Shown here piece by piece: positions 19,830-32,231 of a stretch of DNA of 64,000 nucleotides. Numbering within the stretch: position 1 is the first letter of the stretch; the number at the start of each line of letters is the position of its first letter. The notes under the pieces were generated by a model. That model was given only the letters and a program-made list of their open reading frames with translations, was not told where the DNA came from and made no database searches. The position numbers and the translations under genes are program-made. The stretch lies in the NCBI RefSeq assembly GCF_053078305.1, contig NZ_CP166879.1, one strand, 5' to 3'.

Positions 19830-20017
19830 CGTTTAACAGCCTGCCGGACGGGCTGTCCTACCTTCTCAATCCGGTTGACGCCGGGTTAATTCCTTATACA
19901 GCACTTAAAGATGGCTCTGTCGATTTGTACGATATTGCTCTTTTGAATGACCATCTGGCGGTAAAAGCGGATAACCAGCGGCGCATTGAGAAATGGAGAG
20001 AGGATAATGAACGCTGA
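19772..20017 (+). other. Candidate programmed -1 frameshift: slippery GGGAAAT TTTTTG (19772-19784) with 78-codon -1 frame extension ending at 20017 (GT-like product)
   Basis: Heptamer in X XXY YYZ register of the chaperone frame; -1 frame has no stop between 19724 and 20015. Confidence 0.45.
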
Positions 20018-21995
20018 AACTATTAAAGATTTCCTCGTCTCGCTTGGCTTCAGTGTGGATGATGCAGGAGCGAAAAAGTTCGGTTCTGTCCTCGCCGGTA
20101 CAACTGCAAATGTCATCAAAATGGGGCTGGCCGTTGAAGGAGCCGCGCTGTCCGTGGTGGCCTTCACGGCTAAGATCGCCTCCGGTCTGGATAATCTTTA
20201 CTGGGCGTCACAGCGCACTGGAGCGACAGTCCAGGGAATTCAGTCTATTGGCTATGCGGTTTCGCAGGTTGGCGGCAGCGTGGACGCTGCGCGATCTTCT
20301 CTGGAAAGCCTCTCCCGGTTTATTCGTAATAATCCCGGTGCAGAGGGATTTCTGAATCGCCTGGGGGTACAGACACGGGATGCCAGCGGTAACATGCGTG
20401 ACATGGCCGCTATTTTTACAGGTGTAGGCCAGAAGCTCAGCGGCATGCCGTATTACCGGGCTAACCAGTATGCGCAGATGCTGGGCATTGACGAAAATAC
20501 CCTTATGGCGATGCGTCGGGGTGTGGGTGGTTTCTCCGGGCAGTACAGCGCAATGGCGAAAGCTATCGGCTTCAATGCTGACGAGGCGGCCAGAAGCTCC
20601 AACAAATTTATGACCTCCCTGCGTGAGTTTAGCGCGATGGCAGGCATGGCCCGTGACAAAATCGGCTCTAATCTTGCGGGTGGACTTGCGGGGTCGCTGG
20701 ACACCCTGCGCCGCCATATCCTGGACAACTTCCCGCGCATCGAGCAGACTCTGACGAAAGCCATAAAAGGCATTCTGGCGCTCGGGGATATTATCGGGCG
20801 GCTGTTCTTCAGACTGATTGAGGGGACATCAGGCCTTATCACCTGGTGGCAATCGCTGGATAAGCAAACGCGGGAGTTGATCTCGCTGTTTGGCGCACTG
20901 ACGATTGCGCTGCGCATTCTGAACAGTACGTTCTGGATGTCGCCGATTGGCCTCATTACCGCGCTGGCGGCGGGGATTGCCCTCCTGTGGGAGGACTATC
21001 AGACCTGGAAGGAAGGCGGCGACAGCCTGATTGACTGGGGCAAGTGGAAACCGGAGGTCGATGCCGCGCTGAAGATGGTTCGTGACCTTAAAACAACCGT
21101 TAACGACCTGGTGAAAGCGCTGGCGAAACTGCTCAATATTGACCTCAAATCATGGTCCCTGAAGTGGGATTTCAGCAACTTCATCGACCAGATGGGCGAA
21201 TTCAGCAAAATGCTGAACATGATCGCCGACCTGCTCAACGCTATCAAAGATGGCCGCTGGGCTGATGCCGTCAGCATCGGCAAACAGATACTTAATCAGG
21301 GCAGCGAAAATCCGTCAGCGATGCCGATGGTTACAGACAGCGCTAACAGTACTGCCGACTGGATTAAAGAGCACTGGGGATTCGATCCCCGCAGCGTGGG
21401 CCGGACGGTACGCGGCTGGTTTGGTGATGATGAGCCGGAACAACATGCACAGGCTACGAAACGAGGAGAACGGAATAACAATCCGGGAAACCTTAATTTT
21501 GCTGGTCAGGCAGGGGCTTCTCTTGAACGCCCGGGCGGGCGATTTGCCAGATTTGAAACTGCCTTTGATGGATTACGGGCTCTTGCTCGTCAGTTAATGC
21601 TGTACGCCGGACGGGGAATAAACAGTGTGGAGAAAATTATCTCTACCTGGGCACCTGCGTCTGATAATAACAACACAACTGCGTATATCAGGGCTGTATC
21701 GCAACGACTGGGAGTGGATCCCCGGGCTGCCCTGAATATGAGCGATCCGCAAACCATGTCAGCATTGATGAGCAGCATTATCCAGCATGAAAATGGAAGA
21801 AATATCTATTCTCGAGAGCTGATTAATAAGGCTGCCGTGGCGGGAATTAGTGGCAAAATGACAGAGGTTAACCAGCAAAATACTTACCACATTTACGGTG
21901 GCGGAGATCCGCACGCTGTCGGTAATGAGGTTGCACGTCGGCAACAGTCTGCAAATGCTCAGGTCATGCGAAGTAATCAGGTGAGGGTGGGTTAG
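20007..21995 (+). CDS. Tail tape measure protein
   Basis: About 660 aa; ATG at 20007 with SD GGAGAGAGG (ORF track begins at TTG 19986). Confidence 0.75.
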   Translation: MNAETIKDFLVSLGFSVDDAGAKKFGSVLAGTTANVIKMGLAVEGAALSVVAFTAKIASGLDNLYWASQRTGATVQGIQSIGYAVSQVGGSVDAARSSLESLSRFIRNNPGAEGFLNRLGVQTRDASGNMRDMAAIFTGVGQKLSGMPYYRANQYAQMLGIDENTLMAMRRGVGGFSGQYSAMAKAIGFNADEAARSSNKFMTSLREFSAMAGMARDKIGSNLAGGLAGSLDTLRRHILDNFPRIEQTLTKAIKGILALGDIIGRLFFRLIEGTSGLITWWQSLDKQTRELISLFGALTIALRILNSTFWMSPIGLITALAAGIALLWEDYQTWKEGGDSLIDWGKWKPEVDAALKMVRDLKTTVNDLVKALAKLLNIDLKSWSLKWDFSNFIDQMGEFSKMLNMIADLLNAIKDGRWADAVSIGKQILNQGSENPSAMPMVTDSANSTADWIKEHWGFDPRSVGRTVRGWFGDDEPEQHAQATKRGERNNNPGNLNFAGQAGASLERPGGRFARFETAFDGLRALARQLMLYAGRGINSVEKIISTWAPASDNNNTTAYIRAVSQRLGVDPRAALNMSDPQTMSALMSSIIQHENGRNIYSRELINKAAVAGISGKMTEVNQQNTYHIYGGGDPHAVGNEVARRQQSANAQVMRSNQVRVG

Positions 21996-22582
21996 TGGAT
22001 ATTCTCTCTACACTTTTTCATCAGCAGAGCAGAAAAATAGGAATGATTGTTCCCAGTGTTGTTATTTCAGAGAAGCATACAGATATGCTTGAAATAACAG
22101 AGCATCCGGTAGAGGTTGGGGCCGCTGTCGCTGATCATGCCTATAAAAAACCGTCAGAAGTGGTGATGGAGGTTGGTTTCGCCGGTGGCGGCGCATTGCT
22201 GGATTTTGCCAGTAATCTGACGGCTACCAGCCTGCTCGGCCTGAGTCCTCAGCAGACGTATCAGGAGCTACTGGATCTGCAGGAAAGCCGTATCCCCTTC
22301 GATGTGGTAACCGGTAAACGACTGTACAGCAACATGTTGATCCGGGCGTTGGAAGTGACGACGGACAAGACAACCGAAAACGTCCTGTCCGCCGTCCTCA
22401 CCCTGAGGGAGGTCATTATCTCCCGGACACAGCAGATTACCGTCGCGGATAAAACCAACATGAAGGAAGGGGCCAGCACGTCGGCGGTACAGAACAGCGG
22501 CAACAAAACCACAAAGCCTCCAGATACTTCACTGCTGAAAAGCATCACGGGTAACGTGGCGTCATTACTGGGGGGCGGCTAA
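21995..22582 (+). CDS. Hypothetical tail protein
   Basis: ORF track 195 aa; GTG start overlapping tape-measure stop. Confidence 0.4.
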   Translation: MDILSTLFHQQSRKIGMIVPSVVISEKHTDMLEITEHPVEVGAAVADHAYKKPSEVVMEVGFAGGGALLDFASNLTATSLLGLSPQQTYQELLDLQESRIPFDVVTGKRLYSNMLIRALEVTTDKTTENVLSAVLTLREVIISRTQQITVADKTNMKEGASTSAVQNSGNKTTKPPDTSLLKSITGNVASLLGGG

Positions 22583-22884
22583 TGACAATTCAGGAAATTC
22601 CGCTGACAGCGGACAACCAGCAGTTCAGCATCGTCCTGGGGGGTGTCACCTGGCGGATTAGCATCATATGGCGCGATCTGTACTGGATTATGGACCTGCA
22701 GAACGACAGAGGGGAGCCGGTAATCTCCGGTATTCCTCTTGTCACTGGTGCTGACCTGCTGGCGCAGTACGCCTGTATGGGGCTTGGTTTTAAGCTGGTG
22801 GTGGTCTGTGATGACAACACACAGGATTACCCCACAAAAACTGACCTGGGCGGTCGCAGCCATTTACTGGTATCAACGGAGTAA
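22582..22884 (+). CDS. Hypothetical tail protein
   Basis: ORF track 100 aa. Confidence 0.4.
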   Translation: MTIQEIPLTADNQQFSIVLGGVTWRISIIWRDLYWIMDLQNDRGEPVISGIPLVTGADLLAQYACMGLGFKLVVVCDDNTQDYPTKTDLGGRSHLLVSTE

Positions 22885-22886
22885 GC

Positions 22887-23951
22887 ATGTCACAGAACTG
22901 GATGAGACATTTCGAGCTGCAGCTTGTGGACGGGAACGGTCAGGGAATTGAGCTAAGTGATTTCAAAGTCACCTTTACGATCGACTGGTTCAACATCAGC
23001 AGCGCGTCCCGGGTAGGGACTATCAAAATTTATAACCTCTCGGCAGATACTGTGAACCGAATTACCGGGCAGGAGTTTTCGAAAGTGCGTCTGATTGCCG
23101 GTTACGACGGTATCGCGCCGGAGGTGTCAGCAAGCGACGTAGGGACCGTGCGGGGAGTTGACGCGGCGGACGTGGGCCAGAGAGATGGCCGCAACTACGG
23201 ACTGATTTTCAGCGGTGAAATTCGCTACTCGGTCACAGGAAAAGACAGTCCGGTTGATACCTACGTCCTGATTCAGGCAGCAGATACTGATCTGGCTTTT
23301 GCCACCAGTATAACCTCACAGACGCTGGCTGCCGGTTACACGGTCGCTGATGTGAACCGTGCGCTGATGAAAGACTTCGAAGCCAAAGGCGCGACCGAAG
23401 GCCTGACGCCTGAAATGCCTGCTACTGTATTCCCCCGGGGGCGGGTACTCTTTGGCATGACGCGGCATCTAATGGATAACGTAGCCGGACAATGTGGCGC
23501 AACATGGCAATTCGTGGACGGTCAGCGCCAGATGGTGGCGAATAACGAATATGTTCACGAAGCGATTGTGCTCAACAGCGCTACCGGGCTTATTGGCATG
23601 CCGCAGCAGACTATCGGTAACGGCGTAAACGTCCGCGCGCTTATTAATCCGAACATCCGGGTTAACGGGCTCATTCAGCTGGATCAGGCTTCCGTCTATC
23701 GTACCGCGTTGTCGAACAACGATATTGCGATGGCTGGTGGTCAGATCACCGACCAGAACACGGACGGAAATATCACGCTCAGCGGCACCACATCGCAGCC
23801 TGCCTGCATCGCAACGGATGGCGTTTATATTGTGCGCGGGATTATGTACACTGGCGACACAAGGGGCCAGGCGTGGTACATGGATATGATGTGTGAAGCG
23901 CGTGGCGCGGCGGATCTTGTTTCCTCATCAGCGAGGGAAAGAGGGCTTTAA
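22887..23951 (+). CDS. Putative baseplate hub protein (P2 gpD / Mu gp44-like)
   Basis: 354 aa; gene order. Confidence 0.45.
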   Translation: MSQNWMRHFELQLVDGNGQGIELSDFKVTFTIDWFNISSASRVGTIKIYNLSADTVNRITGQEFSKVRLIAGYDGIAPEVSASDVGTVRGVDAADVGQRDGRNYGLIFSGEIRYSVTGKDSPVDTYVLIQAADTDLAFATSITSQTLAAGYTVADVNRALMKDFEAKGATEGLTPEMPATVFPRGRVLFGMTRHLMDNVAGQCGATWQFVDGQRQMVANNEYVHEAIVLNSATGLIGMPQQTIGNGVNVRALINPNIRVNGLIQLDQASVYRTALSNNDIAMAGGQITDQNTDGNITLSGTTSQPACIATDGVYIVRGIMYTGDTRGQAWYMDMMCEARGAADLVSSSARERGL

Positions 23952-24286
23952 TGAAACGGTTATGTTTGGCGTTAGTTATGATGGTTACTGCTCCGGCGAT
24001 GGCTGCAATTCAGTGCGGCAACTACACGATGACCGGTGACGGAATGACTGTTATTAACGGTGAAACTGTCACATCACAGAAGATAAAATTTCTGGGAAAA
24101 GATGGTGACTATTCAAACATGAAAATGGACATGGGCCTGATGCCTTCCCGTGATGGTAACAATTACGGCTTTGAGTTTGTGAAACGTAACGGAAAAGCTT
24201 TCCTGAACGTCCAGCTGCTGCAGAACAGCATGGACGCGCCGAAAATCATTGGATCTTTCCCGTGTAAAAAAGTGAGCAGCAAGTGA
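23951..24286 (+). CDS. Small secreted protein with signal peptide (moron, unknown function)
   Basis: N-terminus MKRLCLALVMMVTAPAMAA; two Cys; inserted between baseplate genes. Confidence 0.5.
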   Translation: MKRLCLALVMMVTAPAMAAIQCGNYTMTGDGMTVINGETVTSQKIKFLGKDGDYSNMKMDMGLMPSRDGNNYGFEFVKRNGKAFLNVQLLQNSMDAPKIIGSFPCKKVSSK

Positions 24287-24795
24287 CAGTTGATGATGAT
24301 CCTTTGAATTCATTTCAAGACCCTGACTTTCAGGAACTTCTCGGCGGAATTGATATTACTCTTGTTATAAGGTTTTTTAATTATTTTTCGCGTTTCGAAT
24401 ATGCGTTAAAAAGAATTAATTTCAAAAAAACTGATCGTAGAAATTATCTAATCGGTGCTGACTGGAGCCGCTACGCTACTGATGATACGCGGCCTTTATA
24501 TCCTACTGGAAATAGAAATGTCGATAGGGCAGTTGAGTATCTATGTCAGCAACCTGTGAAGCAGCAGAGGCATGATTTTTCGTGGGAGGATAAACCTCCA
24601 ATCGAACCTCATTCTCTTGCTGAAGCATTAAAGCAGATCCCGTATATAAGAAATAATCTCTTTCACGGCGGGAAGTATTTACGTCCCGACCCCGTTCGTG
24701 ATGAAAAGTTATTGAAATACTCTATTTATTTGATGCAGTTGTGTTTGATAACTGATAATCAGCTTTCTGAATACTTTAATACTATCCACCGATAG
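24283..24795 (+). CDS. Hypothetical protein with HEPN-like R-x4-H motif (RNNLFH); candidate abortive-infection/RNase-type moron
   Basis: GTG start overlaps upstream stop (GTGA); visibly AT-rich; motif at residues 123-128; followed by terminator. Confidence 0.45.
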   Translation: MTVDDDPLNSFQDPDFQELLGGIDITLVIRFFNYFSRFEYALKRINFKKTDRRNYLIGADWSRYATDDTRPLYPTGNRNVDRAVEYLCQQPVKQQRHDFSWEDKPPIEPHSLAEALKQIPYIRNNLFHGGKYLRPDPVRDEKLLKYSIYLMQLCLITDNQLSEYFNTIHR

Positions 24796-24815
24796 TCATT
24801 CTTCATGAGATAAAA

Positions 24816-24844
24816 CCTGCCACCCGGCGGGTTTTTTGCTTTTT
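24816..24844 (+). terminator. Rho-independent terminator after the moron pair (CCTGCC-ACCC-GGCGGG then TTTTTTGCTTTTT)
   Basis: Hairpin with one G-U pair and T-run read directly. Confidence 0.5.
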
Positions 24845-24855
24845 GGAGCCTAACA

Positions 24856-25608
24856 ATGGCAGTAACTGACCAGACCCGCAGTGGCGATCTTGCCGAAACA
24901 TTTAAATCTGAACGGGAAACAACAAAGAACCAGATCCGTGTCGCCTTGCCTGGCATTATTCAGTCATTCGATCCTGACGCGGTGACGGCGGTTGTGCAGC
25001 CAGCTATCCGGTCGGTTGAAAAGGATAACGACGGTAACCGCATTACCAAAAATTACCCATTGCTGGTGGATGTGCCAGTGGTATTCCCGCGCGGCGGAGG
25101 CTGTACGTTGACTTTTCCGGTAAAAGCTGGGGATGAGTGTCTTGTCGTTTTTGCCGATCGTTGTATTGATTTCTGGTGGCAGAGCGGCGGGATACAGGAG
25201 ACGGTTGATGACAGAATGCATGATTTATCGGATGCGTTTTGTATTGTCGGTCCCCAGTCGCAGGCAAGGAAGATTAGCGGTATTAATACCAGTGCCACAC
25301 AGTTGCGTAGTGACGACGGCAGCACCTATTTTGAGCTTAATCCTGATACCCGGAAAATTAAAATTGTCGCTCCGGGGGGGCTTGATGTGGTTGCCCCCCT
25401 GGCTGATTTTTCTGAGAAAGTAACCATTCATGGCCTGTTAACCTGGATGGGGGGCATGGTGGGGTCTGTTGTTTCTGGTGTGGCTTCAAAAATCACTGGT
25501 GCTGTTGAGTTTTTGGGTAGCGTGAAGGCTAACGGCAAGCCAATCGATGATACGCACACTCATGGTGGTGTTCAGCGCGGTGGAAGCAATACCGACGGAG
25601 TAAACTGA
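24856..25608 (+). CDS. Baseplate assembly/spike protein (gpV-like)
   Basis: 250 aa; gene order. Confidence 0.55.
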   Translation: MAVTDQTRSGDLAETFKSERETTKNQIRVALPGIIQSFDPDAVTAVVQPAIRSVEKDNDGNRITKNYPLLVDVPVVFPRGGGCTLTFPVKAGDECLVVFADRCIDFWWQSGGIQETVDDRMHDLSDAFCIVGPQSQARKISGINTSATQLRSDDGSTYFELNPDTRKIKIVAPGGLDVVAPLADFSEKVTIHGLLTWMGGMVGSVVSGVASKITGAVEFLGSVKANGKPIDDTHTHGGVQRGGSNTDGVN

Positions 25609-25961
25609 TGCGATACAGACGTGAAGACGCCGATGGCGATTACACCTTTGGCAGCGGTGATGACACCTGGCTGATTAACTCACCGGAGGCCGTGGCGCAG
25701 GCGGTAAAAACGCGATTCGAATTGTGGTATGGGCAATGGTTTCTCGACACCACCGAGGGGACTCCGTGGATCCAGTCCGTACTCGGTAAGCAGAAGCCGG
25801 AAACCTACAACCTGGCGATCCGTAAGCGCATCCTCGAAACGCGGGGCGTTAAATCAATCCTCTCTTTCAATACGACGGTGGATACCACGACCCGACGTGT
25901 CATGTTTTCCGCTGAAATCGACACTCTTTATGGAATAACGACTGTTACATCGGAGGCGTAA
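25608..25961 (+). CDS. Baseplate protein (gpW-like)
   Basis: 117 aa; gene order. Confidence 0.55.
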   Translation: MRYRREDADGDYTFGSGDDTWLINSPEAVAQAVKTRFELWYGQWFLDTTEGTPWIQSVLGKQKPETYNLAIRKRILETRGVKSILSFNTTVDTTTRRVMFSAEIDTLYGITTVTSEA

Positions 25962-27160
25962 TGGCTCTGAACCTTGATTCTCTCGGTTTATCTGCAAAGG
26001 TAACCGCGGAGGGGATCAGTGCGCCTGATTATCAGACGATACTCAGCACCCTGATTAGCTATTTTCAGCAGATTTATGGCAGTGATGCCTACCTCGAACC
26101 GGACAGCAAAGACGGCCAGATGGTGGCTCTGATGGCGCTGGCGATTCATGATGCCAATAATATGGCGATAACTGTCTACAACTGTTTTTCACCGGCAACC
26201 GGCTATGGGGCTGCACTGACCAGTAACGTGAAAATAAATGGTATTTCACGTAAAGGCGCGACGAACTCTACGGTTGATTTGCTTCTTACAGGAACTGCCG
26301 GAACAACCATCATTAATGGCAGCGTGAAAGACAGTAATAATGTGATATGGCGTTTGCCTGCTTCAGTAGTGGTCGGCGTGGATGGTACAGTGATGGCGAC
26401 CGCAACATGTTCCGTCAGTGGTGCAGTGGCGGCGCTGGCTGGAACTATCACTGAAATTAATACGCCAACCCGTGGCTGGGTTTCGGTAACTAATCCTGCT
26501 GCGGCTACTGTGGGCACTCTGGCAGAAACTGACGCGGAGTTACGTATCCGTCAGTCGCAAAGTGTTGCGTTGCCATCAATAACCCCATTTGAAGCACTGG
26601 ATGGTGCTGTTTCTAATGTTACCGGTGTAACCCGCCACAAACTCTATGAAAACGATACTGGTTCGGAGGACGGTAACGGGTTACCGCCACACTCTGTTGC
26701 TGTAATTGTGGATGGCGGTGATGTGACGGATATTGCTCAGGCTATCAGAGGGAATAAAGGCCAGGGGACAGCCACTCACGGTACAACATCCGTTACGGTT
26801 CCGGATAAATACGGCAATCCCCATGTAATCAAATTCTCGCGTTCCAGTGATGTGCCTGTTTATGCCCGGATTAAATTAAAAGTTTTTACGGGTTATACCT
26901 CACAGATAGGGCAGCAGATCCAGCAGGCTATTTCCGACTATATCAATAGTTTGACGATTGGTGATTCGGTCCTTTTAAGTCGCATTTACTCACCGGCGAA
27001 TCTTGGCGTGGTGAGTGGCGGGAATGCACGCTATTACGATATTCAGGAACTGACGATTGGGAAATCCCCGGGGGCTTTGTCGTCATCAAACATTGATATC
27101 AGATACAACGAATCTGCGTCCTGTACCCCGGAAAATATCGTTATAACGGTGGAGTCATGA
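25961..27160 (+). CDS. Baseplate protein (gpJ-like)
   Basis: 399 aa; gene order. Confidence 0.55.
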   Translation: MALNLDSLGLSAKVTAEGISAPDYQTILSTLISYFQQIYGSDAYLEPDSKDGQMVALMALAIHDANNMAITVYNCFSPATGYGAALTSNVKINGISRKGATNSTVDLLLTGTAGTTIINGSVKDSNNVIWRLPASVVVGVDGTVMATATCSVSGAVAALAGTITEINTPTRGWVSVTNPAAATVGTLAETDAELRIRQSQSVALPSITPFEALDGAVSNVTGVTRHKLYENDTGSEDGNGLPPHSVAVIVDGGDVTDIAQAIRGNKGQGTATHGTTSVTVPDKYGNPHVIKFSRSSDVPVYARIKLKVFTGYTSQIGQQIQQAISDYINSLTIGDSVLLSRIYSPANLGVVSGGNARYYDIQELTIGKSPGALSSSNIDIRYNESASCTPENIVITVES

Positions 27161-27837
27161 GCAAATACACCGAACTAATCACGAACTACCACGCCACCAA
27201 ACCTAAATTTCTTGCGCATGTTGATCTGATGACCCGGCCGCTTATTGATGTTGCGGCTGCCACCAGAGGGCTGATTACTGCATTTGATATTGACTCTGCG
27301 GTTGGTGTGCAACTTGACATTCTGGGATTGTGGATCGGACGTAGCCGTGTTGTCAGCCAGCCTATCTCAGGTGTCTATTTCAGCTGGGATACCGACGGGC
27401 TTGGATATGATCAGGGGGTATGGCAGGGACCATACGATCCTGATTCCGGATACATGTACCTCAGCGATGAAACTTATCGTGTCATTCTTAAAGCGAAGAT
27501 TGCGATTAATAACTGGGATGGACGGAATGATTCGCTTCCGGCAATTCTTGACGCTGCAACAGCAGGATCCGGGCTGCGAATGCAGATAGTCGATAACCAG
27601 GACATGACGATATCGGTCTGGGTCTTTCCTGATACTGATATTTCAGATGTATCGCGTGAGTTAATTGCGGCAATTAAACAGGGGTATCTCACAGTAAAAG
27701 CCGCCGGGGTATGGGCGGGTGGCATTGAAACACCTTCGGTGGAAACCCCATCGGAAGGCTCAAAATTTTTTGGTTTTGATATGGATAACGAATTCATCAG
27801 TGGTTTTGATGTAGGAGCATGGGGAGTATTACTCTGA
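27157..27837 (+). CDS. Tail/baseplate protein (gpI-like)
   Basis: 226 aa; gene order. Confidence 0.5.
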   Translation: MSKYTELITNYHATKPKFLAHVDLMTRPLIDVAAATRGLITAFDIDSAVGVQLDILGLWIGRSRVVSQPISGVYFSWDTDGLGYDQGVWQGPYDPDSGYMYLSDETYRVILKAKIAINNWDGRNDSLPAILDAATAGSGLRMQIVDNQDMTISVWVFPDTDISDVSRELIAAIKQGYLTVKAAGVWAGGIETPSVETPSEGSKFFGFDMDNEFISGFDVGAWGVLL

Positions 27838-28292
27838 TGGCGAAAAATGACTTTAAAGCGTTTGCAACGGATCGAAATGCCAATGTTATATCGCAGGAGG
27901 AATGGGAAGCGTTGCCCGCGCTTTTATCCGGATTTACAGCAGGGAAAGCCTCCAGTGCGCAAGTCAATAAGGTTATTCGGCAGGTCAGCTTTATTGCTGC
28001 AGCTCTGGCCCAGTTTGTAAGTGATAAAACGCAACGGGATGTGCTTGATAATGGTGATCTGCCCGGTTTTGTTGAATTGCTGGGATCGGGGTTTGCTGTT
28101 GAATACCTGAGCCGCAAGAATCCGTTTGGTGATATCAAATCGGATGGCACGGTGAAAACGGCTCTCGAAAACCTTGGTTTGGGAGAAGAGCACAGCGTTA
28201 AGCCGGGTTGTTTCTGCCTGCGTCAGCTTCCGCCCGGCCTGCAATTTCAGCTGAATCAGACTAATGGAAGCCATAGCCGCATCAATCAGTGA
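27837..28292 (+). CDS. Tail fibre, constant N-terminal part, fused in the present orientation to only 34 codons beyond the crossover site
   Basis: ATG 27837 overlaps gpI stop; reads through site at 28162-28187 (N-L-G-L-G-E) and stops at 28290. Confidence 0.6.
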   Translation: MAKNDFKAFATDRNANVISQEEWEALPALLSGFTAGKASSAQVNKVIRQVSFIAAALAQFVSDKTQRDVLDNGDLPGFVELLGSGFAVEYLSRKNPFGDIKSDGTVKTALENLGLGEEHSVKPGCFCLRQLPPGLQFQLNQTNGSHSRINQ

Positions 28293-28715
28293 CTGGCGCC
28301 GTACTTCTGCCGCGTCTACTGCGGCGTTATGCTGTGCCTCAGTGTCGGTCACCCATTTCTCACCATCCCATTTATCGTATGACGTTAACGGGGCGATAGT
28401 GGTTGTATTTTCAGGGTAATCACCCGGAACTGTGATTTCTTTTGATTCTCCTGTTTCGGTGCTATAGACGATTTCACCGCGATGGTCTGGCACATATTCC
28501 CATGAGTTAAAATCTGCAGAACGGCAAATTGCATAACCAGCTTTATATGAGCCAGGAGCATCTAAACAGGAACATGCCGGGATACCGACACCCACAGCAA
28601 GATATTCAGTTGATGTGGAAATATATTCCCGTGTTTCACCATCATAATTATAAACGGTAATGTCTCCGGCCTTTGTGGCGATGAGTTCATTATTTAATAC
28701 AGCTTTACTTATCAT
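27924..28715 (-). CDS. Tail fibre assembly protein (Tfa/U-like); in this orientation the frame reads through the crossover site into antisense of the fibre gene
   Basis: ATG at 28715 overlaps stop of variable fibre cassette (ATGA); native C-terminus probably near the site at 28187. Confidence 0.5.
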   Translation of the reverse strand: MISKAVLNNELIATKAGDITVYNYDGETREYISTSTEYLAVGVGIPACSCLDAPGSYKAGYAICRSADFNSWEYVPDHRGEIVYSTETGESKEITVPGDYPENTTTIAPLTSYDKWDGEKWVTDTEAQHNAAVDAAEVRRQSLIDAAMASISLIQLKLQAGRKLTQAETTRLNAVLFSQTKVFESRFHRAIRFDITKRILAAQVFNSKPRSQQFNKTGQITIIKHIPLRFITYKLGQSCSNKADLPNNLIDLRTGGFPCCKSG

Positions 28716-29196
28716 GCAGCCCTCACAATATAATTAAAGGCGATGTTACGGGAGCGGGTTTCAGATGCTGTGCGAACTGAGCGAGATGCGTCGAATGTCC
28801 AGTTATAAGCGCCATAACCCTCAATAATTTCGGCTTCCTTTAGACCTGTAGATAATACTTGCCCATGTTGACTAAATGGCCCTGAACTAAGTACGTCTCT
28901 AAAAAGCTGGGTACGCCCAAAAGAACCAACAATATTCTGAATTGCATCATTCTGTGCAGATAATAAGTTACGACCAGAGTCAATCCCGCGCCCATCATCC
29001 CAGCCACGAATAAATTCACCGCGTAAATCTGGTAATTTTAATGTTGGGTAAGCCTTTGCCAGATTTGGGTACTTTTCAGAAGAAAATACTGCTCCGTTAC
29101 ATTTTAGCCACCCCATTGGCGGAGTGGCTGAAGGCCACGGAACAGGCACACCAACCGGTAATGCAGAGCCTTCTCCCAAACCAACGTTTATGAAAA
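28162..29196. mobile_element. Invertible DNA segment (about 1 kb) flanked by inverted 26-bp Pin/Gin/Hin-type crossover sites at 28162-28187 and 29171-29196
   Basis: Perfect 14-bp inverted core TTCTCCCAAACCAA (29171-29184) and its reverse complement TTGGTTTGGGAGAA (28174-28187); invertase gene adjacent. Confidence 0.75.
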
Positions 29197-29224
29197 TGCA
29201 GAAATAACGAGCAAATGGCATCAT
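28712..29224 (-). CDS. Variable C-terminal tail-fibre cassette (receptor-binding part) in the silent orientation
   Basis: Same N-V-G-L-G-E junction frame across site 29171-29196 as the constant part; first 12 codons lie outside the segment. Confidence 0.6.
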   Translation of the reverse strand: MMPFARYFCIFINVGLGEGSALPVGVPVPWPSATPPMGWLKCNGAVFSSEKYPNLAKAYPTLKLPDLRGEFIRGWDDGRGIDSGRNLLSAQNDAIQNIVGSFGRTQLFRDVLSSGPFSQHGQVLSTGLKEAEIIEGYGAYNWTFDASRSVRTASETRSRNIAFNYIVRAA

Positions 29225-29250
29225 TCCTGCTTTTGTCAGGGAGATCTACC

Positions 29251-29805
29251 ATGCTTATTGGCTATGTACGCGTATCAACAAATGACCAGAATACCGATCT
29301 ACAACGTAATGCGTTGAACTGTGCAGGATGCGAGCTGATTTTTGAAGACAAGATAAGCGGTACAAAGTCCGAAAGGCCGGGACTGAAAAAACTGCTCAGG
29401 ACATTATCGGCAGGTGACACTCTGGTTGTCTGGAAGCTGGATCGGCTGGGGCGTAGTATGCGGCATCTGGTCATTCTGGTTGAGGAGTTGCGCGAACGTG
29501 GCGTTAATTTTCGCAGCCTGACGGATGCTATTGATACCAGCACACCGATGGGGCGTTTTTTCTTTCATGTGATGGGGGCCCTGGCTGAAATGGAACGAGA
29601 ACTGATTGTTGAACGAACAAAAGCTGGACTGGAAGCTGCTCGCGCACAGGGACGAATTGGTGGACGTCGTCCCAAACTTACACCAGAACAATGGGCGCAG
29701 GCCGGGCGACTAATTGCATCAGGAGTTCCTCGCCAGAAGGTGGCGATCATTTATGATGTTGGCGTATCGACTTTGTATAAGAAGTTTCCGGTCGGAGATA
29801 AATGA
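29251..29805 (+). CDS. pin: Serine DNA invertase, Pin/Gin/Cin/Hin family
   Basis: MLIGYVRVSTNDQ with catalytic Ser; C-terminal HTH; 184 aa; adjacent to crossover site. Confidence 0.9.
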   Translation: MLIGYVRVSTNDQNTDLQRNALNCAGCELIFEDKISGTKSERPGLKKLLRTLSAGDTLVVWKLDRLGRSMRHLVILVEELRERGVNFRSLTDAIDTSTPMGRFFFHVMGALAEMERELIVERTKAGLEAARAQGRIGGRRPKLTPEQWAQAGRLIASGVPRQKVAIIYDVGVSTLYKKFPVGDK

Positions 29806-29885
29806 AACCGTAGCACGTCGTATGCAAGAACGTGCCACGGCTGGCTGATAAGCTTGTAAAAATATTGAACAGGGAGTGGAGCATT

Positions 29886-30533
29886 CTATGAAGCTAATTT
29901 GTTTAATTTCATTTGTAGTGACTTTACTTCTTGGTCGATAATGTCGAATCCCTTATTGACAGCATCTCTTAGCTCTGCATCAATATTTTTTATCCCTTGA
30001 GCATAATCTACCATTATATTTATTTTTGCATCATGTAATCTCTTATACATGGTTTTATTTTTGTTATTGTCTGCCATGCCAATAAGGATTTTTTCATAAT
30101 CCTCAATGAGTTTGTTGTTTCCTTTAAATGATTGTATTAATGAGCGTGAATATGTGTATATGTTAATTATTGAGTCTCTAGCAGAATCATTTAGTTTTGC
30201 AATGACATTCGCATTTTGCTCATAGAATGTGAAATTATCATCCCCTACAGGGAATGTGAGAATCAACATTTGTCCCGGTTTTATATTATCAATGTGTGTT
30301 TTCATCCTTTTATTATATAAATTGATTAGGGTGAAAACTTCTCCCTTAACTCCTTTTAATACTGAAAGTTGTAATTCAAGGGATTCTCTTTCTGTCTCTA
30401 CTTTAGACAGCTTAGCTTGTTGGGTAACTCCTTTTAGGGTAAACCATCCGCCAATAAGAGTACCAACTAGAGCTGTGAGGGAGGAGGATAACCATCCAGG
30501 TATGCTATTTAAAAGATTACTAAATTCACTCAT
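29886..30533 (-). CDS. Hypothetical membrane-anchored protein (N-terminal TM helix, coiled-coil-like remainder); prophage cargo
   Basis: ORF track 215 aa; hydrophobic stretch WLSSSLTALVGTLIGGWFTL; strongly AT-rich. Confidence 0.5.
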   Translation of the reverse strand: MSEFSNLLNSIPGWLSSSLTALVGTLIGGWFTLKGVTQQAKLSKVETERESLELQLSVLKGVKGEVFTLINLYNKRMKTHIDNIKPGQMLILTFPVGDDNFTFYEQNANVIAKLNDSARDSIINIYTYSRSLIQSFKGNNKLIEDYEKILIGMADNNKNKTMYKRLHDAKINIMVDYAQGIKNIDAELRDAVNKGFDIIDQEVKSLQMKLNKLAS

Positions 30534-30593
30534 TATAAGTACTCGCTAATATTGAACGATATATATATATCAAATTATTATAAAACTCGTCAG

Positions 30594-30935
30594 CTACTGG
30601 AGAAGGCTACCTGAACTTCGATCTATTCCTGCATCCATATAGTTGATGGTCTTCTGGAGCTCTTCGATTAGGGCAACAGCTTTTGCTCGAGAAATGCATA
30701 TTAGTTGATCCGGAAATTCTTGTAAGGGCCAGTTTGGTATACAGGCCATGTTATCAATGAAGGATGCAGACAAGTAAACTTCATTGGTAACCAGAGAATA
30801 GCTTACCTCAAAATTGGTGAGTTCCGGCAAACTGCTAACGTTTGACTCTTTTCTGCGCATAATATTATCCATGACTGTAATTATGTACAGGTGATGGTCT
30901 TCAATTTCGAAGAGGGAGTCAAGGGGGAGTCTCAA
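30594..30935 (-). CDS. Hypothetical protein, upstream partner of the membrane protein; prophage cargo
   Basis: ORF track 113 aa from TTG; alternative ATG gives about 92 aa; AT-rich. Confidence 0.4.
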   Translation of the reverse strand: MRLPLDSLFEIEDHHLYIITVMDNIMRRKESNVSSLPELTNFEVSYSLVTNEVYLSASFIDNMACIPNWPLQEFPDQLICISRAKAVALIEELQKTINYMDAGIDRSSGSLLQ

Positions 30936-31174
30936 ATGAACCGTTATAGAAAAAGGGGGGGGATCTTTGTGTTGCTGAACTTATGCAAAATTTTTTTGCA
31001 CCATAAATCCAACAACACATTCAATAACACATTGCTGTATCACTATGAAAATAAATGTGTTTTTATTTGATTTCACACATATCACAATTGATGCATTTTT
31101 TAGTGATTAACAGCGCCATAAGGAAACTCTCAAAACAACACAAACCGGGCGGGCATTATACGCGCATTCTTTAC

Positions 31175-32023
31175 TCAGACCAGTTTTTTCACCAGCGCTT
31201 CACTATGACGAATACGTTCTGGTGCCAGTTCCAGATCCTGCTGAATCAGCGCAATGAACAGCAAATCCGTTAACATTCCCTGCGCGTGACAAGCAGAGAT
31301 TGAAGCACTGTTTGTCGCTTGTTCTTCGGCAATGGTATACAGGCAATGAGAAGCACGCTGTTGCAGGGCATTGGGAGTAAAGCCGGTAATCGCCAGCACT
31401 TTTCCGCCCACTCGCAGCATCTCATCTGCCGCCAGGTTTAACTCGCGTCGTACACCGGTGTAAGAAATGGCTAATAACAGATCGTCAGGGGACGACGCCT
31501 GTACGGTAGCGAGTAGCGCATGCATATCGCGCACTGCGGCAGCATTGAAGCCAATCTTCATCAGCTTCCAGGCAAAGTTTTGCGCCACCAGACCCGAAGC
31601 GCCAATACCGGTCAGAATTATCCGCCGCGCAGAGCGCAACATTGTTACGCATTCATGCAGTTTCTCTTCACTATTAACGTTTAGCGTTGCGTACATAGCG
31701 GCAGTATTTTCTTTAATCAGTTTTTCGCCGACCAGCCGTAACGGATCATCACCGCGGATTTGGTTATGAATGGGCACGGAGGGCGATTCCGGCTGGCTTG
31801 CCAGCGCTTCACTCAACGCCAACTTAAGCGCCGGAAAACCTTTATAGCCGAGTTTTTGCGCGAACTTCACGACGCTGGACTGACTGACTCCGGCTTCGTT
31901 GGCCAGTTGCTGAGAGCTTAAATGGCGCGCCGTATCAGGTTGTAGCAGCAGATAATCCGCCAGTTTTTTATCACTCTGGGCAAGCCCCTGGTAACGCTGA
32001 CGGATACGAAGTAAGCCGTTCAT
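31175..32023 (-). CDS. yfhH: RpiR/MurR-family transcriptional regulator YfhH
   Basis: HTH plus SIS-domain sequence; K-12 gene order; start taken at the ATG giving 282 aa. Confidence 0.85.
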   Translation of the reverse strand: MNGLLRIRQRYQGLAQSDKKLADYLLLQPDTARHLSSQQLANEAGVSQSSVVKFAQKLGYKGFPALKLALSEALASQPESPSVPIHNQIRGDDPLRLVGEKLIKENTAAMYATLNVNSEEKLHECVTMLRSARRIILTGIGASGLVAQNFAWKLMKIGFNAAAVRDMHALLATVQASSPDDLLLAISYTGVRRELNLAADEMLRVGGKVLAITGFTPNALQQRASHCLYTIAEEQATNSASISACHAQGMLTDLLFIALIQQDLELAPERIRHSEALVKKLV

Positions 32024-32231
32024 ATCTTTCCTCGCGATGAAATAGTGGCGACAACAGGCAATATGAGACACACGCGAGTGAATTTTATATTCCATTGCCG
32101 CTAATTGCCATGAATTAAAAATTCCAGTTAGCCATGATGCGGTCGATTGTTGCCGGAAAAGTGATGATCTATCTGTTAGGCTATGTAGTAGCGAAAATTA
32201 ATCAGGATGTTTCAGTCCAGAGGAGTATGGT

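Follow-up and report, generated by a model that had tools for sequence, protein, structure and literature searches.

The stretch of DNA analyzed here (64,000 nucleotides of contig NZ_CP166879.1, assembly GCF_053078305.1; hereafter the window) contains an Escherichia coli prophage, a temperate myovirus with its tail and baseplate block. Between the baseplate hub gene and the gpV-like spike gene of this prophage lie two small open reading frames (ORFs), ORF1 and ORF2. RefSeq calls the same two coding sequences (CDSs) in an identical E. coli locus, and names the product of the spike gene membrane-puncturing spike protein. A first-pass annotation had described ORF1 and ORF2 as a moron pair, i.e., a coupled and AT-rich insertion that interrupts the tail genes, ends in its own rho-independent terminator, and joins a secreted protein with two cysteines to a protein carrying a motif of HEPN RNases. 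Our analysis separates the members of this pair. ORF2 alone is cargo and is a genuine HEPN-fold protein, whereas ORF1 and the hairpin belong to the phage backbone and delimit a slot where related phages carry many different genes, some of which are known defense genes.

The cargo slot between the hub and spike genes

The hub, ORF1, and ORF2 are chained by overlapping starts and stops. The GTG of ORF2 overlaps the stop codon of ORF1 by 4 nt (GTGA), as previously noticed, and the stop codon of the hub lies on the ATG of ORF1 (TAATG). The composition of the two ORFs is different. ORF2 has a GC content of 0.382, with only 0.339 at the third codon position (GC3), and is the lowest 513-nt window of the structural region (7000-27800), where 0.2% of the windows are equally low. 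The GC content of ORF1 is 0.452, a value as low as that of 5.9% of the 336-nt windows of the same region, and its GC3 (0.545) lies inside the range of the neighboring tail genes (0.445-0.644). Hence, the AT-richness attributed to the pair is a property of ORF2 and not of ORF1.

The slot extends from the stop codon of ORF1 to the conserved hairpin. A scan of IMG/VR with an alignment of ORF1 confirmed 277 loci, 80 of which we retained, and the cargo ORFs were clustered across 83 loci. ORF1 starts around 3 nt past the end of the hub in all 80 viral contigs, two of them lacking cargo. The hub is 71-100% identical across the related loci, and the spike gene is found downstream of the slot. Between these flanks we found around 22 cargo architectures, and the distance from the stop of ORF1 to the ATG of the spike varies from 61-62 bp in the two loci without cargo (L019 and L020) up to 1487 bp. 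The cargo has a GC content of 0.35-0.45, against 0.53 at the empty junction. The ORF2 family is present in 7 of the 83 loci: the window, L022-L024, L056 (53% identity), and L004/L005 (51% identity). Comparing syntenic prophages, as the first-pass annotation had advised, thus gave two answers: ORF2 is absent from most of them and does interrupt the tail genes, as the empty loci show, whereas ORF1 is present with every cargo and also without any.

Related elements tell a similar story. In SEN34 (Brunovirus), Yersinia phage YP3, and Klebsiella phage Mulock, an ORF1 homologue (58-76% identical) follows the hub and an unrelated gene occupies the position of ORF2, and a Salmonella prophage remnant retains the order ORF1-ORF2-spike. 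In a set of 5426 complete E. coli genomes, part of the query is matched by 318, but the ORF2 version is present in only 24. A megablast search retrieved E. coli phages that are 99.4-99.5% identical over the stretch from hub to spike and have the same cargo. Since such near-identical phage genome records carry it, ORF2 is apparently compatible with its own phage. Apart from one 13-nt chance pair, there are no direct or inverted repeats flanking the cargo that could be scars of insertion, which makes cargo exchange by recombination in the flanks likelier than site-specific insertion.

A moron is an autonomous unit of promoter, gene, and terminator that separates two genes which are neighbors in related phages. 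ORF2 resembles a moron in its insertion between such genes and in its deviant composition, which is not the case of ORF1. There is no spacer upstream of ORF2, and neither a promoter nor a terminator of its own could be recognized. A scan for sigma-70-like promoters gave 6 sites, against 3.3 +/- 1.7 expected by chance, and none is convincing; the sole site on the + strand 5' of ORF2 is a 9/12 match within ORF1 (24060-24089). No RNA family of Rfam matched positions 22500-26000. The moron pair thus shrinks to one inserted gene, ORF2, in a backbone that includes ORF1 and the hairpin.

Several of the other cargos are recognizable. A protein of 409-411 aa, found in 11 loci, matches PD-Lambda-1 (E 4.9e-85), since renamed SNIPE, a nuclease of the membrane that cuts the DNA of a phage while it is being injected. 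The third gene of a three-gene cargo matches PD-T4-9_C (E 1.4e-7), another cargo is an Mrr-like nuclease matching the ZorD and PDC-S02 models, and elsewhere the slot holds a toxin-antitoxin pair whose toxin is named YafO in RefSeq. The commonest cargo, in 24 of the 83 loci (L021, L025-L031, L034, L036, L040-L042, L047-L050, and others), is an uncharacterized two-gene unit where a protein of 243-276 aa, of one of two unrelated types (C1 or C2), precedes a protein of 123-154 aa (C0, phrog_5176). C0 has a weak match to the PADLOC model HEPN_IX (E 0.005) and no match in Pfam, so that it is unconfirmed as a Pfam HEPN protein. We regard this unit as a candidate for a new two-gene system.

The comparisons of these loci show a cargo hotspot in SEN34/Brunovirus-like temperate myoviruses of Enterobacterales. 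With its conserved flanks, its many cargos, and an apparent enrichment in known defense systems, it has the features of a prophage defense hotspot. We found no description of this hotspot in the library searched, which is incomplete.

Table 1. Genes and features of the tail and baseplate block around ORF1 and ORF2, in positions of the window.
Feature	Positions	Strand	Match or remark
Tape measure	19986-21995		
phrog_817	21995-22582		
phrog_349	22582-22884		
Baseplate hub, 354 aa	22887-23951	+	phrog_196 'baseplate hub', E 3.9e-89; left conserved flank
ORF1, 111 aa, ATG start	23951-24286	+	small protein, predicted exported; backbone gene
ORF2, 170 aa, GTG start	24283-24795	+	HEPN fold; cargo gene
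Hairpin and T-run, intrinsic-terminator-like	24812-24835	+	terminator scan; right border of the cargo slot
Spike, P2-V-like, 250 aa	24856-25608	+	TIGR01644 phage_P2_V, E 3.7e-8; right conserved flank
W-like wedge	25608-25961		
J-like	25961-27160		
I-like	27157-27837		

Fold, family, and neighborhoods of ORF2

The HEPN assignment of ORF2 had been made from a single motif, RNNLFH at residues 123-128, which is indeed there. The HEPN signature consists of R-x4-6-H with a polar residue after the arginine and of an upstream E-x3-[KR], and the former is placed where one helix ends and the next loop starts (Anantharaman et al., PMC3710099). ORF2 has both parts, in the segments FSRFEYALK (E39-x3-K43) and R123-NNLF-H128-GGK. 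In an alignment of 28 members with identities down to 27%, the invariant residues are F35, S36, R37, F38, E39, K43, P91, Q95, and W101 in the first part of the protein and R123, N124, N125, L126, F127, H128, G129, K131, and R139 in the second. The motif and the E-x3-K are thus kept throughout the family.

The AlphaFold (AF2) model of ORF2 has a pLDDT of 91.8 and a pTM of 0.86. It has long helices at residues 25-44, 78-89, 112-127, and 137-157, and a beta/loop insert at 90-111, i.e., the up-down four-helix bundle of HEPN proteins, where an insert separates helix 2 from helix 3. F127 is the last residue of the helix 119-127, and the loop starts with H128. The E39-x3-K43 is in the first of the long helices, against helix 2 in the published description (PMC3710099). 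Searching AFDB50 with Foldseek, we obtained 67 matches at E<=1e-3, with TM-scores of 0.6-0.8 for those listed. Among the best 50 of the 67, most have HEPN labels (Apea-like, RiboL-PSP, pEK499_p136), around 10 are uncharacterized, and one TIGR02391 protein is the sole named non-HEPN. In addition, a profile search of the PDB aligned RNNLFHGGK to RNsvaHGG of a CRISPR-associated protein (E 0.017), and the identical E. coli protein in UniProt (A0AAN1M6S7) is called 'Apea-like HEPN domain-containing protein'. The structural model and the invariant motifs therefore agree that ORF2 is a genuine HEPN-fold protein. Neither of the two outcomes that the first-pass annotation had named as refuting its HEPN guess, a model lacking such a fold or a variable motif, was observed. 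The residues of its signature lead us to predict a metal-independent RNase.

ORF2 belongs to a large family. Word-indexed and exhaustive searches gave 30 clusters at 90% identity; at 50% identity there are 1064 representatives at E<=1e-3 (218 at E<=1e-10) from many bacterial phyla. Nearly all members are stand-alone proteins of 155-180 aa, and a Pfam search of two longer fusion proteins (P0125 and P0127) for sensor domains revealed nothing. One variant in the public data (P0032) has 55 aa, and its first 49 residues are identical to those of ORF2. In the look-up of the 90% clusters, ORF1 (111 aa) and ORF2 (170 aa) shared one cluster, perhaps because a gene call running over the GTGA overlap was fused or frameshifted. 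A literature search by protein accessions found no paper on ORF2 in the same incomplete library.

Given the existence of a truncated variant, one may ask if ORF2 is an inactive or decaying HEPN remnant, carried as a passenger of a recombination hotspot. Its rarity (around 24 of the 5426 complete E. coli genomes) and the absence of a known family model matching it are in line with such a fate. Yet ORF2 is full length, its catalytic-type residues are intact and invariant in this family of 1064 representatives, and several independent records of phages and prophages have the protein with a conservation of 99-100%. We consider a decaying passenger to be quite improbable.

We then read around 10 neighborhoods of distant homologues, which seem to be variable and to resemble defense islands. 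One homologue has HEPN_AbiV, TIR, RNase T, and Mrr/DEAD genes as neighbors, another adjoins an MNT-HepT pair, another is 3' of a STAND NTPase, and another is near a T5orf172 gene; others adjoin DUF433/PIN toxin-antitoxin pairs. None of these contexts revealed a recurrent partner, and outside the phage lineage we never saw an ORF1 neighbor in them. In three loci (L006 5101-6513, L007, and L008) a homologue with 38% identity is the third gene of an operon, following the genes of an XRE-type HTH protein and of an ImmA/IrrE (M78) protease, so that a protease may control the regulation in the XRE-ImmA branch of the family.

ORF1, the hairpin, and other features of the prophage

ORF1 has the n-region, h-region, and AxA pattern of a signal peptide, and the same pattern is found in all 28 aligned homologues. 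The signal peptide and the two cysteines reported before are both there: C22 and C105, in the mature part, are invariant in the 28 homologues, and a third cysteine of the precursor (C5) is within the signal peptide. The model of ORF1 is an 8-stranded beta-barrel (pLDDT 81), of a fold class that includes the periplasmic lysozyme inhibitors PhiA, PliC, and MliC and an immunity protein of the type VI secretion system (T6SS). Some database entries annotate it as 'Secreted protein'. Pfam-A gave no match for ORF1, and PADLOC and NCBIfam nothing meaningful. It is not kin to a secreted cargo of 127 aa found in the slot (C6; BLASTP E 1.5). The last 3 or so codons of ORF1 vary with the cargo, which places the left border of the slot there. 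Its occurrence across the lineage marks ORF1 as a conserved backbone gene and not as part of the ORF2 system. At a guess, its role is at the level of the envelope, e.g., superinfection exclusion or the inhibition of cell-wall hydrolases. We observed that the C-terminal part of the tape-measure protein has an NNPGN-type motif, and that RefSeq annotates its homologue in a sister prophage (L017) as a lytic transglycosylase. One could speculate that the tape measure is a tail-borne cell-wall hydrolase and a possible target of an exported inhibitor such as ORF1.

Since ORF1 is predicted to be exported, and the assembly of tails is cytoplasmic, it is probably neither a tail subunit nor a cytoplasmic antitoxin, and we ruled it out as a cytoplasmic partner of ORF2. 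The location of the genes inside the baseplate block, where ORF1 is conserved, might still suggest that one or both are structural components of the tail or baseplate. This is scarcely credible: ORF2 is missing from most relatives, two of which have an empty slot, and it has the fold of an enzyme; the conserved signal peptide of ORF1 is cleavable, which predicts a periplasmic location. Moreover, ORF1 can be replaced by a different signal-peptide protein. We thus rejected the pair as a structural component. The replacement was seen in E. coli strain 35 (NZ_CP172867.1; L016 1822-3502), where an unrelated signal-peptide protein of 154 aa takes the place of ORF1 after the hub and is followed by a 190-aa gene and by a YafO-family toxin gene. 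It seems that an exported protein has its reserved place directly 3' of the hub.

ORF1 and ORF2 could also form a two-gene unit, where an exported sensor or exclusion protein works with a cytoplasmic HEPN effector, or a toxin-antitoxin-like pair. The 4-nt overlap, the coupling that is kept in three diverged loci of the ORF2 type, and the co-variation of the last codons of ORF1 with the cargo are what one would expect from such a unit. On the other hand, ORF1 accompanies every other type of cargo as well as the empty slots, the homologues of ORF2 outside the lineage never have it as a neighbor, and the signal peptide of all ORF1 homologues puts them in another compartment than ORF2. The GC3 is backbone-like in ORF1 and foreign in ORF2. 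A functional unit of the two is therefore highly improbable.

The hairpin has a similar distribution to ORF1. It was taken for the own terminator of the pair; it is real, but it is a backbone element and the right border of the slot, because it is present across cargos and in empty loci. In nearly all of the related loci, its sequence, ACCCGCC-loop-GGCGGGTTTTTTGCTTTCTGGAG, lies just 5' of the spike ATG and is kept, irrespective of the cargo, together with the T-run and with the GGAG 3' of it, the ribosome-binding site of the spike gene; the 2 cargo-free loci have all three. The 71-nt stretch around it has a folding energy of -22.2 kcal/mol (z = -2.9), and 94.8% of the cells of the alignment are paired. 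Covariation is weak, with 2 pairs showing double changes, which is not above shuffles, and the conservation is claimed for sequence and structure only. As the hairpin resembles a terminator in the middle of a tail and baseplate operon, late transcription may get past it by read-through or antitermination, or it may restart from a promoter downstream.

Further downstream, two other regions of the prophage stand out. At 27819-29805 there are ORFs for the C-terminus and assembly of tail fibers on both strands (27819-28292 on the + strand, 27924-28715 and 28712-29224 on the - strand), adjoined by a serine recombinase/invertase gene (29215-29805) whose best NCBIfam matches are XisF, Ccr cassette recombinases, and a Mpi-family invertase. 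This is apparently an invertible tail-fiber segment, much like those with which Mu and P1 switch their host range. The end of the prophage (29850-30950) is a very AT-rich block with a GC content of 0.30-0.34 that looks like a second cargo region. In it, an ORF on the - strand (29886-30533, 215 aa) has no match in NCBIfam, PADLOC, or PHROGs, and another on the same strand (30594-30935) matches phrog_17793, a family of unknown function. The next gene is a chromosomal murR-like gene (31175-32095).

Possible roles of ORF2 and comparison with known systems

We slightly favor, over all else, that ORF2 is a latent stand-alone HEPN RNase that aborts the infection by competing phages. We infer abortive infection from its place in the hotspot and from the analogy with HepS and ApeA, two HEPN proteins compared below. 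ORF2 would form a dimer or a higher oligomer, where R123, N124, and H128, together with E39 and K43, make up a metal-independent RNase site. Present in the lysogen, it would be kept inactive there, since no antitoxin is encoded. A signal from the infection by a competing phage would switch it on, and it would then cleave tRNA or other RNA and abort this infection, as HepS and ApeA do. From this perspective, ORF2 is a plausible defense gene and not a surprise.

Several observations weigh against a defense role from the lysogen. No promoter specific to ORF2 could be recognized, and the gene is coupled to ORF1 and, through it, to the late hub gene. Because of this translational chain and the lack of a promoter, ORF2 may be made only late in the lytic cycle of its own phage, which would fit a role benefiting the phage as well as defense. 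There is no Pfam-A family for ORF2 or 27 relatives (E<=10), no PADLOC family for ORF2 (E<=1), and none in NCBIfam; hence, its family is not among the known defense models. The 'Apea-like' label of UniProt could not be reproduced with Pfam. The slot also holds cargo other than defense genes, i.e., small membrane proteins, DUF4282, and unknowns. Finally, several of the distant neighborhoods are on short contigs, and 3 extra look-ups were uninformative because of the shortness of their contigs.

The main rival follows from this coupling to the late genes. ORF2 could be a HEPN RNase that benefits the phage, made late with the tail genes and not acting from the lysogen. It could degrade the RNA of the host or of a competitor, for host takeover or for the exclusion of co-infecting phages during lysis, or it could counter a defense of the host. 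The lack of an intergenic spacer and of a convincing promoter agrees with this role, and the start-stop overlaps of hub, ORF1, and ORF2 place the latter inside the late tail operon. The coupling to ORF1 is even kept in diverged ORF2s, as ATGA in L056 and as TAATG in L004. Nevertheless, ORF2 is absent from 76 of the 83 loci, with 2 empty slots, and its absence from most sister phages suggests that the lytic cycle does not require it. In other loci, the slot contains systems that protect the host, such as SNIPE/PD-Lambda-1 and the toxin-antitoxin pair, and the distant homologues are in chromosomal settings resembling defense islands, not in phages. We consider a role for the benefit of the phage to be unlikely, and that of a latent defense RNase to be the better account.

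A bolder proposal is distinctly unlikely. The ORF2 family could be a new type of self-contained HEPN immune protein with its own trigger, and/or the succession of ORF1, cargo, and hairpin could be a dedicated expression cassette. Such a cassette would express an envelope protein and an interchangeable defense cargo from inside the baseplate operon, and the hairpin would silence, in the lysogen, the tail genes that follow it.

If ORF2 does defend, it would be a second stand-alone HEPN immune protein, apparently unrelated to HepS in its sequence, and from a large unannotated family. The hotspot is perhaps the more useful product of this analysis: it has sharp borders within a baseplate operon, can easily be mined, and holds SNIPE/PD-Lambda-1 and other known systems beside several uncharacterized cargos. 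Current ideas are not overturned, since solo HEPN effectors were established before, as were prophage hotspots.

Among the known systems, ApeA is a HEPN anticodon nuclease of abortive infection that is activated by deoxydinucleotides (bioRxiv 2026.01.26.701840). The likeness with ORF2 lies in the UniProt label of the identical protein and in the labels of the nearest structural neighbors in AFDB. However, ApeA has a beta-rich N-terminal domain of around 300 aa, doughnut-shaped oligomers, and a ligand pocket, whereas ORF2 has 170 aa and only the HEPN domain. Since this N-terminal domain is lacking and Pfam, PADLOC, and NCBIfam give no match, ORF2 is best placed in the HEPN superfamily but not in ApeA, a membership for which the UniProt label is the sole support. 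ORF2 also differs from the HepT/MntA (HEPN-MNT) type II/VII toxin-antitoxin systems, as its upstream gene encodes an exported all-beta protein; there is no MNT nucleotidyltransferase antitoxin beside it in the slot, which is followed by the hairpin and the spike gene. For ORF1 alone, a parallel is found in the morons of tail modules that act at the envelope, i.e., HK97 gp15, T4 Sp, and the Cor lipoproteins, which are also small exported or membrane proteins among tail genes.

The slot itself resembles the hotspots of P2 and P4 (PMC9122126), where conserved flanks surround interchangeable AT-rich cargo with experimentally validated defense systems. It differs from them in being in a SEN34/Brunovirus-like lineage, inside the baseplate operon, bounded by the gene of an exported protein and by a hairpin. 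A close parallel for ORF2 is HepS ('HEPN Solo') of the Salmonella prophage Gifsy-1, a partner-less protein whose default state is inactive and which cleaves the anticodon loops of tRNA once the tail-tip proteins of other siphoviruses have switched it on (PMC13043305). No HepS chain was matched by ORF2 in the profile search of the PDB (E<=10), in a copy where the presence of the HepS entries (e.g., 9OIK) was not confirmed. HepS is in the replication/antirepressor region of a lambdoid siphovirus, whereas ORF2 is in the tail module of a myovirus, its family has its own signature (FSRFEYALK ... RNNLFHGGK), and its trigger, target, and phenotype are proposed by analogy. In turn, what the two have in common is to be single small HEPN proteins with the canonical R-x4-H, no antitoxin or partner gene, and a place in the accessory cargo of temperate phages.

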